From assembly GCA_951406725.2 (NCBI GenBank), contig OX597816.1, positions 77,996,001 through 78,060,000 on the forward strand: a stretch of DNA of 64,000 bases, written 5' to 3'. Positions 41,152 to 62,115 of this stretch are shown piece after piece; positions within the stretch are counted from its first letter, which is position 1, and the number at the start of each line of letters is the position of its first letter. This stretch comes from Octopus vulgaris (taxonomy: Eukaryota). Made by a program: the position numbers and the translations under genes. The notes under the pieces are model-generated. The model worked only from the letters and a program-made list of their open reading frames with translations, ran no database searches and was not told the DNA's origin.

Positions 41152-41857
41152 TTCATTTTCCTGAAACCGTTTCTTTCTTCGTTATTTTTAAAAATCATTT
41201 ATCTGTTATATCTTTTATTTTATATATTACTTTTATTGGTTACCTTATGATTATCGGATGATCTCTTATTGTTGCGGATATCAGTAAAAAATCTGAACCA
41301 GACGAGTTTGGAATCTACATGTATTTTTACTTTGCCTTTCAGGTTGCTATATTAAATATGATGACTGAACTAGCAATAAAGTAAAGAAAATATATACATA
41401 CATATGTGTGTGCATAGTAAAAACTGTTTTCCAATTTTAATTACAAGAACAGCAAGTTTAAGGAGAGAGGACTAGTCGATCACATTGACCCGAATACCTG
41501 ACTAGTATTTTATTTTATCAACCCCGAAAGAATGAAAGGCAGAGTTGATGTAAAGAGCCAAAAGAAATATTGTTCAACATTTTCTCCGTTATGCTAACGA
41601 TTCTTCTAGCTCTTTCTATTATAGGCACAAGGCCTGAAATTTTGGGACTAGTCGATTACACTGACACCAGTGTTCAGCTGGTACTTATTTTATTGATGAA
41701 AAGCCGTTAAGCATTTTGCCCGGGGTGCTAAAGGTTCTGCCACCTTACCGTCTAATAATAATAATAATAATAATAATAATAATAATAATAATAATAATAA
41801 TAATAATAATAATAATAATAATAATAATAATAATAATGATAATAATAATAATAATAA

Positions 41858-42391
41858 ATGCCCTGATGCAGTACCAGACACTGGCCTCTCATGGTTTCTC
41901 ATCTTAGCTGATTGGAAGTGTTATGTACATTGTTTTCTCTTGGTATAAAAGACGGGCTACAGCAAATACCACAGGTTTGCTTATCAGTTGTTTGATCTTA
42001 ACCAGTTGAGCATTTCCCTTTGTGGCTGGAGATATGTGCATCACTGATCATGAGCAGAAGTAGTGGGGAAGCCATGTGTTTAGAGAAATTCTCTGGGGTT
42101 TGAATAATTCACGTTTGGAAACATCGGCGTTTTGTTCAACATCATTAAACAAACCTTATTCAAGGACCTTTTGAGTAGGATGGGCTACTCAACTTGTAAA
42201 AAATTCTAACTGGGCCACACCTGCTAGGTCATGCACTGCTAATCTTGATATGAGATCACCATGTTGTGCACATATGATTGTGATGCATGTCCCTGGTGTA
42301 CTCTTATCAGACGGGTAGTCATGATGGGTATACTAAGCTTCGTATATTTTACCCCAGTGTCACTTTGAAGGCATGCACTGCTCTCTCACTC
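41858..42391. mobile_element. ~540-bp non-coding element in (AAT)n, copy 2
   Basis: Same two ends as copy 1; flanked by (AAT)n at 41753-41857 and 42392-42463. Confidence 0.85.
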
Positions 42392-42463
42392 AATAATAAT
42401 AATAATAATAATAATAATAATAATAATAATAATAATAATAATAATAATAATAATAATAATAAT

Positions 42464-43190
42464 TTTTACTGGCCACAAGAGCCGCAAATAAACATTTTGG
42501 AAAAAACAAAGTCAAAGTACGATGGGGATTTACATAGTGACATTGTAATCAATATAATTGCAATTAACAAGAAAATTCTGACAACAAAATTCCCCAATAG
42601 TGGGGAAAAGCCACTCGGGGATAACCAAGGAATTCCACATATCCCTTTGTCACCTTCCTCACCAAGAATACTGATGCCAGTGCACCTCTCTCCTCCATAC
42701 TTTTCAGCCTAGAAGCGTATGCTTAAAATGAGTCCATTCACTCGCTACATTCCCATACTTTCACCCATATTCACCCTCAAATCAATGGCGCCCTGGCAAA
42801 AATGGAAATTGTTTACCGTCAGTCATTTCAGTCGCGCCCACCACACAACCATATTCGCCGTTGCCACCAGTCAGAGCAAGAAAATCTGTCCTTCACTGCC
42901 AAAGGTAGACGGCGGGACAATTTTTACGAAGGAGTCGGCCGATAACCCGATCTGGTCTGCACGTGTTAGCAGCTGCTCCACATAAATCCACAAATCAGAA
43001 ATGCTTGAACACTGTACGAGCGCGCCTGCCATCACTACCATACCTACAGGATTTGTCAGGGATTTCTGGAAATTATCCATGGATTCTGGCCCAAAAATCC
43101 TCGGGAAAAAGTTCCCCTAAGGGCGCCATCACTCTTACCTTCTGCTAATCTTCTATAGGACATCCACCGACCACATTGCCCGACTGGCAC
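42464..43190 (-). mobile_element. 3' fragment of an L1/Tx1-like non-LTR retrotransposon
   Basis: The minus strand encodes ALVQCSSISDLWIYVEQLLTR...LSADSFVKIVPP...EGQIFL, then VATANMVVWWARLK. This resembles the C-terminal region after the zinc finger in L1/Tx1 ORF2. AAT repeats lie on both sides. Confidence 0.5.
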
Positions 43191-43206
43191 TTAATAATAT
43201 TAATAA

Positions 43207-58050: not shown

Positions 58051-59035
58051 TGGCAAGAAAAACCTCTCTATGGCAAATACCCAAAGAGAGCGAATAATGC
58101 AGATATCGACAAAGCCCTGACCCATCAATGGCTAATGGCCTCTGGCTTAAAATCTGAAATAGAGGGGTTTATCATAGCAGCTCAAGATCAATGCCTACCA
58201 ACAAGAAACTACCAGGCCAACATATTAAAGATCAGAAGCAGTCCAACGTGTCGTGTATGCAAGCAACAAAATGAAACCATTGACCATGTGGTGTCCAAGT
58301 GCAGTCTTCTAGCGCCTACAGAGTATCTCAACAGGCACGATAGAGCTGCACAATATATTCACTGGGTAATCTGTAAAAACCTGGATTTGCCCCATGGAAA
58401 AAAACTGGTGGGAACACAAACCACCCCCAGTGCTTGAAAATGACCACATCTCACTCCTCTGGAACTTCACCATTCAAACTGACAGGAAGATAGATGCAAA
58501 TAGGCCAGACATCATATTGAAAGACTTCAAACAAAGAACATGCCTCCTCATTGATATGACTGTCCCAATCGATATAAACGTATCTGTCAAAACCTACCAA
58601 AAACTGAGCAAATATAAAGATCTTGAAATAGAAATCAGCAAAATGTGGAAGCTGAAGACTAAAACAATACCTGTTGTCATAGGTGCCCTGGGAATGATAG
58701 CAAAAGGGGCGGATAGCTACCTAACTCAGATACCAGGAAACCCAAAAATGGCAGAAGTTCAAAAGATAGTGCTCATGGGAACTGCTCATATCCTACGCAA
58801 AATACTCTCTATGTAATCTCAAGGTTTAAAACAAACATAATTTTCGGTTTAAAAAAAAAAAAAAAAAAAAAAATTTTTTTTTTTTAGACATTCATTAGTA
58901 CAACATCCCCACCCCCCAAATATATGGCACACTAGGCATAACAACAACATGAACTTCCAACCTTGTTGTATCTTGAGGTCTCTGGGTGAGACTTGGAGCC
59001 AACTTGTACAAATATAAAGCAAAAGTCAAACATAG
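58051..59035 (+). mobile_element. Dong-like family B, copy 3 (endonuclease region + 3' UTR)
   Basis: Highly similar to ~47273-48223; (AAT)n on both sides. Confidence 0.92.
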
Positions 59036-59070
59036 AATAATAATAATAATAATAATAATAATAATAATAA

Positions 59071-59760
59071 TGAAAAGAAATATTACAAGTAACTGCAGAA
59101 TATGTGGAGATGGACAAGAAACAATAAATCATATTATCTCTAGCTGCCCAGTCCTGGCTAAGAAGGAATACATTCACAGACATGACAGAGTTGGAACCTA
59201 CATACATTGGAAGCTATACCAACATTATGGAATAACAACAGAAAAAAGATGGTATAGGCACACACCAGAAAAGGTCACAGAAAACGAGAAAGCAACCATA
59301 CTCTGGGATATGCCGATACACACAGATAGAGAAATTAAGGCCAACAGACCAGATATAGTTGTCAGAGACCATGAAGAAAAAAATGCTTTCTAATTGATGT
59401 ATCAATACCGGCTGATGACAACGTGTCTCTAAAAGAAATGGAGAAACTCTCAAAATACAAAGACCTAGAAATAGAGGTAACTAGAATGTGGAATCTGAAA
59501 ACAGAAACAATTCCTATCATAGTAGGTGCATTAGGCATGATAAAAAAATATTCAGACAAATACATAACAAAAACACCAGGACTTACAAACACATATAACA
59601 TACAGAAAATTGCACTACTAGGCACTGCACACATCCTACGCAGAACACTTTCCATACAATAACCATCAGAGCATCACAACAAATCACAGCACATACCCAA
59701 GGCACACAGAGCTGCGCTCGGTAGTGAAGTGAAAGCACGCTATAAAAATAAAACTACTGA
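59071..59760 (+). mobile_element. Dong-like family A, copy 2 (endonuclease region + 3' UTR)
   Basis: Homologous to ~44239-44930; encodes CRICGDGQETINHIISSC, RHD and RPDIV; followed by an (AAT)/(AAC)/(AGC) microsatellite to ~60016. Confidence 0.92.
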
Positions 59761-62115
59761 ATAATAATAATAATAATAACAACAACAACAACAACAACAA
59801 CAACAACAACAACAACAACAACAACAACAACAACAACAACAACAACAACAACAACAACAACAACAACAACAACAGCAGCAGCAGCAGAAGCAGCAGCAGC
59901 AGCAGCAGCAACAACAACAACAACAATAACAATAATAATAATAGTAATAATAATAATAGTAATAATAATAATAATAATAATAATAATAATAATAATAATA
60001 ATAATAATAATAATAAAGTTTTCCTCCTTGGCATTGACAGAATTATCAGGAGATTATTAGATATTTAAAGAAAGCAGATAGCATGGTACCATAGGCTGCA
60101 GAGAGCAAGCAAGCCCACTACTCATGCATGACTTCAGGAGTGCCAACAAAACCTGAGTTAAAAGAATAAAAATGATAATGATAATGATGCTGATGATGAT
60201 TGTTTAACGCTGAAAAGAAGAAAAAGAATTAAGTGCTATAAGTATCACACAGTATTCTCTTTTTTCTTTTAAGGAAAATGCAAAACCAAAGAGGGAAAGG
60301 GACAGAGATAATGGACTAAACTAAATCGTAACTAATCTGCACACCCTCTGATAACTCACGGATGGCAATTTGACGATTTCCCCTCACAACTGCACACACA
60401 TCTGCTATGTTTGTCTCAGTTCTTTTGGTTGCCGGTCTCCCAGAACGTTCGTCATAACGACATTTTTCGGCTCATACACTCCTCTCCATACACTTTCTGT
60501 CACATTGCGTAGGCCTCTGAGCAGGTATCGCCAAGCTTTTGGCGAAATTTGATGCAGGTTCATGGTCACTGCGACAATCACACGCTATACAAGTTCCTTC
60601 CAAGCATTGCTGTAAACTGTGGAAGTGAACTAGAGCGTTAAAATTTAGTCTGCAGGCACAGCAAAATTTAAGCTCAATCTGTGCCAAGCGGCTTCACTCT
60701 GCGTGCTTTAGTTTCGTTATTATGGCAACAGTCCGGATACTTATTGATCAGGATAGTATGTATGTACGATAATGTGTGCGTGCGTGTATGTGCGTGTATG
60801 TTTGAGTGAAAGAGAGCGAAAGTATCAGACCATGGATGTCAATACAGCTAGAGTATCCACGACGTCGGCAATTCTTTTCTTGACATCGTAGCTACGATGC
60901 ATTCATGATCAACACATCTATAATTTTTTCAAAATTCAAAACACAAGGTGATATAGTCCACTACTGCAATCAACGGCAACGTTGCTTAAATAAATGCATT
61001 TCGTTGATTTGCAGTTGTGCGTTCAATTCCTTTTGCTGATAAAGTTACCTGCGAAGCACCAAAAATTGATTTTCAACAACGAATTTACTTCTCATTAAAG
61101 GATCAATTTGTACTTCTTTCACTTGAAAATAAAAACACTCGAATTGACCATCGATTCATGACATTGACGGGATTCGGAAAGGGCAACTTTTTCCATAGCT
61201 TTGCTTGAAAAATTCCTAAGAGAAAGACAAGAATTTCATGCATGATGAAATTTTATTTGTAATCAGATAACTGTTAGGATCCTGTACGTGGTTGTTTGAG
61301 ATAATAGATATAATGACCAAATTACCTTTAAATGCTGTAGTAAAGCACGTGGAAGCAGTGTTGTAAATAAATAATAAAAAATAGATCAGTTCAAATACGC
61401 TTGGGACAGATTTGAACTATAAAACTGCTGTTTACAATTCAGAGAAATTCTCGTTTTAGCAATAGTTACTATAAAATATCAACAATTATTCCATGGTCGT
61501 TCCTGACGAAACGGTGAATGTGTTTCTAACTTGTTGGCTATCATCAGCACCGTGTACCACAAGAAAGATAACTCTGAAATGACTCTAGAATTTTTCGCTT
61601 CCTTATAGGAAATCAGTTTCAAAGCCTGAACTATTTATGTGCGACACGGGCCAAGGCTAGAGCAAAATATTACAGGAGTTAATATTTAGATCTCTTCAAA
61701 TTTAAATCAGTTCAGCATTTAGATCAGTTCAGATATGTTTGAACTGATCTGAATGTTTCTTTGATCTTCTGCATGTTTGTTTAATCATCCTAAAAACGGG
61801 GAAGACTGCAGTAGATTCTTGATTCCAAAACTGGGGCCCGCGAAGGGGTTGCCAATATTCAGATTTTTGATGTTCAAAACCATAGGTTTTCTGGTTTTAG
61901 ATAAAACTGAAACCTTTCAACATGCACGCCCTACACAGAACCCTTGATTTACGTGTTTAAAAAAACCTTTCAGATAGAATGCATTTAAAGCGACGCTTCG
62001 CGACGCGCGCAGGGTGTATACGCACGTATTTAAATACAGGCGTCTCTCTGCGGCTTTATCGATCGGTAATTGGGGTATGAGCGCAACAAGTCTAAACAGG
62101 ATTGAAAATTGACGG

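Follow-up and report, generated by a model that had tools for sequence, protein, structure and literature searches.

Introduction

In most insects, molluscs and cnidarians, Dong elements, which are long interspersed nuclear elements (LINEs) of the R4 clade, have (TAA)n as their target (PMC7998251, PMC3812793), and clades with a restriction-like endonuclease (RLE) are mostly target-specific (PMC4640811). Dong of Bombyx mori, DongAg, DongBg of Biomphalaria glabrata and Dong1/2 of ostracods combine a reverse transcriptase (RT) with a C-terminal CCHC motif and an RLE, lack an apurinic/apyrimidinic endonuclease (APE) and have (TAA)n on both sides (PMC7998251, PMC3812793). The B. mori element self-cleaves at its 5' end through a ribozyme like that of hepatitis delta virus (HDV) (PMC3774820). 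Dong-R4 is ancient in coleoids (PMC8967140); in Octopus vulgaris it comprises 51 families and 92.7 Mb (PMC13282606, supplement) and is the LINE group with the most recently active insertions (1129 of 2533), with 5 recently active families (PMC13282606). The text examined and the supplement of that study discuss neither AAT targets nor nesting. Here we describe a cluster of Dong-like copies in a 64,000-nucleotide stretch of O. vulgaris DNA (assembly GCA_951406725.2, contig OX597816.1, positions 77,996,001 to 78,060,000 of the forward strand), referred to as the window.

The cluster spans 41753..60016 (18,264 bases) of the window, which has a GC content of 36% and is rich in microsatellites. An earlier note, made from the sequence alone, had interpreted it as an 18-kb pile-up of Dong-like insertions in one (AAT)n microsatellite. 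Our analysis indicates that the region is a chain of broken Dong-like (R4-type, RLE) copies from at least three families, which very probably grew by separate target-primed insertions into (AAT)n over millions of years. The cluster is real, but it is not one microsatellite filled by Dong only. Dong copies make up 64.8% of its bases, followed by a minus-strand CR1-like element (16.9%), a non-coding repeat that we call X (5.9%), the minus-strand 3' end of an L1/Tx1-like LINE, element Y (4.0%), and pieces of a short interspersed nuclear element (SINE; 1.2%). The CR1-like element, Y, X, the SINE pieces and a probable further Dong copy, D, go beyond what the earlier note had recognized.

Compared with the Dong elements described above, the locus differs only in host and families. 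At least three families are found at one locus here, and no copy has a full 5' untranslated region (UTR). It is a clear but ordinary case of a known system, since Dong targeting of (TAA)n, to which the earlier note had appealed, is already published, molluscs included (PMC7998251, PMC3812793). That Dong avoids coding sequence is likewise known. The only open leads are repeat X and the sharing of the AAT/ATT repeat by elements on the two strands.

Dong-like copies in the cluster

Dong copies were located by tblastn, which returned six, all on the plus strand, in the order A1, B1, B2, C, B3 and A2. This matches the six copies in three families (A x2, B x3, C x1) proposed earlier, and the sequence identities agree. 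At the DNA level A1 and A2 were 84% identical and the B copies 90-92% identical to each other (gaps counted within B), while identities between families were 57-62% over long alignments, or 40-54% between proteins. A quick tree that included 26 relatives, none of them a named Dong/R4 reference, put A, B and C in separate places, and B paired with a foreign protein with 95% support.

B1 (45023..48225) is a 5'-truncated copy with 1004 codons in one frame interrupted by one stop (47120-47122), which contains RT, CCHC, RHD and PD..D..K domains or motifs. Copy C is near full length, aligning to residues 49-1244 of a 1245-amino-acid relative. Its 5' part (51058..52753, start approximate) covers the N-terminal region to the start of the RT, and its 3' part (55841..57982) follows a nested element. 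The RVT_1 domain was detected in both (E 7e-27 in B1, 8e-21 in C). All other copies are 5'-truncated. A1 (43206..44930, start approximate) begins within the RT and is the most decayed, with 5 stops and 8 aligned segments. B2 (48373..49744, start approximate) lacks its last ~275 bp and directly adjoins a SINE on the minus strand that is present by its 5' half, a join that fits one deletion across the junction, which likely removed the B2 end. The remaining two are B3 (58052..59035) and A2 (59072..59759).

Several features point to the R4/Dong clade. The copies fit a single long open reading frame (ORF) without an APE, and no match to the APE domain (Exo_endo_phos) was obtained in B1 or in either of two full-length relatives scanned. 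Eleven positions of the C-terminal CCHC, RHD and PD..D..K motifs (C817, C820, H829, C834, R845, H846, P902, D903, D918, K934 and K937) were invariant in 18 of 18 aligned sequences, namely B1 and 17 of the 120 listed relatives. Among relatives with solved structures only R2 proteins were found (5 sequences, E 4e-52 to 5e-26). R2 has the same RT/RLE layout; however, its target is 28S rDNA and its N-terminus carries zinc fingers, whereas a simple pattern search (not a profile) found no C2H2 zinc finger at the N-terminus of any of five long Dong relatives. A SANT/Myb-like domain at the N-terminus is described for the R4/Dong clade (PMC7998251). The 5' part of copy C aligns with a conserved N-terminal block of the relatives; Pfam gave no Myb match.

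A probable seventh Dong 3' end, copy D, lies at 60015..60201 on the plus strand and consists of the last 17 codons, a stop, a ~100-bp 3' UTR and a degenerate AAT/GAT tail. We derived a profile of the Dong C-terminus from 68 of the 120 listed relatives and scored 63,049 peptide windows with it; this 17-codon frame ranked sixth, behind the five known C-termini (score 4.9; the next scored -8.3). D likely represents a fourth family.

Some loci of the relatives had features worth recording. In five full-length loci (L006:84-167, L012, L014, L015 and L017) a tRNA-like head stands directly after the repeat tract; that of L006 matched the Rfam tRNA model (E 0.017), and the others were judged by eye. 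These heads suggest captured pol III promoters. At the 5' ends of L024 and L029, ~60 bases past the AAT tract, a stretch containing TCCTCAC looks by eye like the core of an HDV-like ribozyme; our descriptor gave it no score. Five further loci (L081-L084 and L087), short contigs of 1.2-4 kb from genome records of prokaryotes, carry animal-type retrotransposon sequence and are likely contamination.

AAT tracts flank the copies on both sides

As stated earlier, five of the six copies run straight into (AAT)n at their 3' ends. The only exception is B2, because its last ~275 bp are gone and the half SINE adjoins. The tracts, all read on the plus strand, begin with ~35 units at 41754..41856, followed by (AAT)24 at 42392..42463, which forms the right flank of the first X copy and on the minus strand is the (ATT)n tail of Y, and by a short degenerate tract at 43192..43207 between Y and A1. 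The tail of A1, (AAT)30 at 44931..45022, is also the 5' flank of B1. A compound (AAT)27 (AAG)16 (CAG)6 tract (48226..48372) separates B1 from B2, and (AAT)18 (49866..49921) separates the half SINE from the second X copy. In front of C are a (CTA/CTG)n microsatellite, an A-rich stretch and (AAT)3 (50596..51057). The remaining tracts are (AAT)23 between C and B3 (57983..58051), (AAT)12 between B3 and A2 (59036..59071) and a compound (AAT)6 (AAC)n (CAG)n (AAT)n between A2 and D (59760..60014).

With D included, the 5' side was pure AAT in four of seven copies (B1, B3, A2 and D), short or degenerate AAT in two (A1 and C) and the AAT-AAG-CAG compound in one (B2). Truncation points, read from the longer sister copy, fell at AAT for B3 and at ATAAT for A2, leaving microhomology at both junctions.

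The earlier note had named the lack of AAT on the 5' side as the sign that AAT is only an element tail. We examined this in 87 loci of relatives from other organisms, collapsed to 76 clusters, using the 26 5'-truncated copies for which 100 or more flanking bases were available and a threshold of four or more units. An (AAT)4+ run stood just upstream of 14 of the 26 copies and an (ATT)4+ run of none, compared with 13 and 11, respectively, of 759 background windows. A looser count that keeps duplicates gave AAT at 27 and ATT at 3 of 44 5' sides, and AAT at 18 and ATT at 1 of 22 3' sides. More than one copy on the same strand was present in 7 of the 87 loci, and in 6 of the 87 the copies were joined head to tail by AAT runs. 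The presence of AAT on the 5' side, in the cluster and above background in the relatives, argues that AAT is a target and not merely a tail.

The copies differ in age

The copies show unequal divergence, as the earlier note had proposed for co-existing families of different ages. Terminal branches in the quick tree were 0.026 for B1, 0.059 for B3, 0.074 for A2, 0.14 for B2 and 0.36 for A1, and copy C has 10 stops in 1128 codons. Kimura two-parameter (K2P) distances were 0.044, 0.076 and 0.099 among the B copies, 0.162 between the A copies and 0.087-0.149 among the X copies. Because branches and distances are unequal, the insertions are likely separate events of different age. With the rate of 0.0036 per million years used in PMC13282606, three-way splits would place B1 at roughly 3, B3 at 9, B2 at 18 and the X copies at 8-25 million years, figures that are rough because the overlaps compared are partly different.

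Elements on the minus strand

The earlier statement that (AAT)n separates most units was borne out, but the pile-up is not single-stranded, as it also holds the CR1-like element, Y and SINE pieces on the minus strand. Given this composition, the cluster need not have been one original microsatellite.

Copy C is split by the nested CR1-like element (52754..55840, minus strand), which combines an APE+RT ORF with two frameshifts and a short tandem-repeat tail, (TAAC)12, as expected for the CR1 group. The insertion produced a 5-bp duplication, AAGAG (52749-52753 and 55841-55845), and the frame of C resumes at the next codon. The element is 3.1 kb long, nearly intact and 49% GC, compared with 36% for the window, and its best relatives are only ~30% identical. 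These features may reflect recent activity or a horizontal origin; a search for a close relative of this GC-rich element found none.

Element Y (42464..43191, minus strand) carries an (ATT)n tail and represents the 3' terminal part of an L1/Tx1-like LINE of the APE type. A word-index search and Atlas gave no match for it, but a full HMMER search matched a protein of Argonauta hians with APE, RT and zf-RVT domains (38% identity, E 8e-21). Y corresponds to the C-terminus of an ORF2 with APE, RT and zinc knuckle, as in L1/Tx1-type elements; Tx1 is a tentative label, and Y may belong to another L1 clade. Kibi, Koshi, Waldo and Mino, which encode an APE, provide a precedent for insertion into simple repeats (PMC3812793), and Y has ATT-like sequence on both sides.

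The SINE pieces belong to a family abundant in the window. Minus-strand pieces occupy 41429..41753, and the head of the last one touches the first AAT tract; a 5' half adjoins B2 (49745..49865), and an (ATT)5 tail with a 3' half follows the second X copy (50468..50560). Minus-strand SINE halves thus adjoin three tracts of the cluster. In the window 5 of 15 SINE heads stand after an (ATT)3+ run, mostly in tandem arrays, and 10 do not. Y and the SINE may also favour ATT repeats as a target, although this is only a lead. Since both carry the same repeat as an opposite-strand tail, they likely seed targets for Dong.

Elsewhere in the window, the SINE forms plus-strand tandem arrays joined by (ATT)n tails (13970-15720 and 19200-20560). 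By eye, the 3' end of Y resembles those of one SINE variant and of the piece at 14631-14743.

Alternative explanations

If AAT were merely a 3' tail made by the element, the copies might have accumulated at random behind the gene, in a stretch that tolerates insertions. Each 5' tract does double as the tail of the upstream unit, the CR1-like element is an example of untargeted insertion at this locus, and O. vulgaris has transposable element hotspots (PMC13282606). However, chance would have to hit, repeatedly and always in one orientation, tracts that make up ~1% of flanking DNA (AAT-strand runs of at least 3 units cover 534 of the 45,351 bases outside the cluster), and the relatives carry 5' AAT far above background, so that we consider this very unlikely. 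The assembly itself might be suspected, as most joins fall in simple repeats. An artefact is the least probable of the explanations considered, and hardly credible, because the copies all differ clearly from one another (86-96% identity when only substitutions are counted); moreover, the nested element has its 5-bp duplication with the host frame resuming, and two junctions show microhomology.

Another possibility is that part of the chain was made in single events. RTs of the R2 type can jump between RNA templates, and both the head-to-tail order and the short terminal branches of the neighbours B3 and A2 would fit such events. The unequal decay of the neighbours A1 and B1 (0.36 and 0.026), which moreover belong to different families, and of B1 and B2 (0.026 and 0.14) speaks against it, and we regard template jumping as improbable, if somewhat less so than the other two.

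Several observations weigh against stepwise insertion of Dong copies into AAT targets as well. Twelve of the 26 truncated relatives have no upstream AAT run, although some of these resemble lost alignments or distant RTs. An eighth Dong-like RT fragment in the window (11258-11984, minus strand) is internal, has lost both ends and has no AAT tract at either. The junction statistics come from relatives in other organisms, not from O. vulgaris copies, and would apply to the latter by extension. Assignment to R4/Dong rests on domains and motifs, the tree containing unnamed relatives only, and should be read as putative. Finally, the tails of the SINE and Tx1-like copies may have come first, or these elements may have inserted into existing tracts, and both orders stand.

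Repeat X, a candidate partner of Dong

Repeat X is present in three copies in the window. X1 (41857..42391, 535 bp, likely plus strand) and X2 (49922..50467) lie in the cluster, and X0 (28781..29320) lies outside it. All three measure 535-546 bp, start and finish alike and are bordered by AAT to the left and right. X1 was matched by 36,566 and 22,448 contigs in two contig sets with two organism labels, and X is therefore a high-copy family. On X1, left loose ends shared the same start after A/T letters that fit AAT (122 and 107 contigs, in which no more than 2-3 letters of flank could be read). In one run, seven raw reads held only the last ~50 bases of X behind an AAT-rich run, and contig depth over X1 was ~5x higher at its right end than at its left, a ratio confounded by X1's own deletions. 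These observations fit a plus-strand element truncated from the left. Two further measures were discarded, namely raw reads for copy number and junction statistics (only 123 and 72 of 12.9 million reads fell on X1, mostly on AAT flanks) and contig depth in AAT bins, which was inflated by AAT-only matches.

X is non-coding; a six-frame comparison with 191 fetched proteins gave a best E of 0.04, which we rejected. A tRNA-derived SINE is not indicated either, as neither strand of X0 contains a B box. ARAGORN found no genes in X and Rfam gave no match, and over 26-62 kb of the window Rfam returned sub-threshold matches on simple repeats only. No alignment above shuffles was found between X and six Dong 3' UTRs, the 5' end of C, Y or the CR1-like 3' end, and a motif of X had no matches in viral contigs. 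Compared with 100 shuffled versions of itself, X folds better (z -3.0), which we did not use as evidence. Our own HDV ribozyme descriptor was silent on C and X, and also on its intended controls, the 5' ends of 11 relatives; because it missed its controls, its silence on X carries no meaning.

R2 SIDEs and EhSINE1 are non-autonomous partners of RLE elements. X is likewise short, non-coding, high-copy and located in Dong's target, but it has no detectable sequence in common with the ends of the Dong copies in the window. It is likely a non-autonomous passenger that uses Dong's sites; that Dong mobilizes it is a guess. The literature covered, including the accessible part of PMC4758252, held no Dong-dependent SINE and no ATT-targeting octopus Tx1. 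Repbase and most subscription papers were outside that scope, so X may already be named.

X0 itself lies inside an AAT tract of another repeat (28660-29600), the left part of which has a B-box-like GTTCGA, and a 13-bp inverted repeat brackets X0. The right part of this repeat has a CTGATGA...GAAAC spacing that we take to be like a hammerhead core; Rfam gave no match.

A proposed route of growth

Under stepwise insertion, the RLE endonuclease would nick an (AAT)n tract, and reverse transcription would begin at the 3' end of the RNA and usually stop early. The cDNA would then pair with the upstream tract over a match of 3-5 bases. Each insertion would split a tract in two and so raise the number of targets, and the fresh landing site left each time is the likely reason why Dong copies are chained head to tail. 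Slippage would lengthen the tract pieces and mutate them into AAG, AAC and CAG runs; such re-expansion, also proposed in the earlier note, is inferred from the compound tracts. As several tracts adjoin minus-strand elements with (ATT)n tails, the sites are likely of more than one origin, and some starting tracts would likely be the tails of SINE and L1/Tx1-like copies. The CR1-like element landed in copy C later, without using AAT.

A bolder possibility, which we offer tentatively and think rather less probable than its negation, is that octopod (AAT/ATT)n serves as a two-way landing pad, entered by Dong in one direction and by APE-type L1/Tx1 elements and SINEs in the other, each feeding targets to the other. 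X would then be a very high-copy, non-tRNA, Dong-mobilized 540-bp element, a SINE-like partner of the R4 clade for which the literature covered gave no animal example. If X is Dong-driven, or if two endonuclease classes share the repeat in opposite orientation, some of the SINE and microsatellite content of octopus genomes would be explained, and the locus would offer a natural substrate for RLE target recognition. The locus illustrates how local transposable element hotspots and microsatellite-rich DNA are built by target-specific insertion in cephalopods, and repeat annotators tend to break such chains into unrelated hits.

Neighbouring gene and other features

The cluster does lie just 3' of a neuropeptide gene, as the earlier note had it. 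The precursor it encodes is achatin-related; its last coding exon (40684..40915, plus strand) ends with a stop at 40915, and the first AAT tract begins 838 bases on. In translation, the exon contains GSWD once, GSWN three times and SGWY, and the GSWD/GSWN peptides stand between dibasic sites; such peptides are called achatin-related in cephalopods (PMC10172372). Together with the Argonauta hians relative of Y, they point to an octopod host. The unique flanking sequence shared 0.83-0.93 of its words with 7 of 24 listed sequencing runs, which carry three organism labels. AATAAA signals occur 3' of the exon at 41146 and 41375. Elsewhere in the window are two inverted repeat pairs, maybe DNA-transposon ends, at 9616-9816 / 11016-11215 (201 bp, 97%) and at 62121-62600 (175 bp, 77%).

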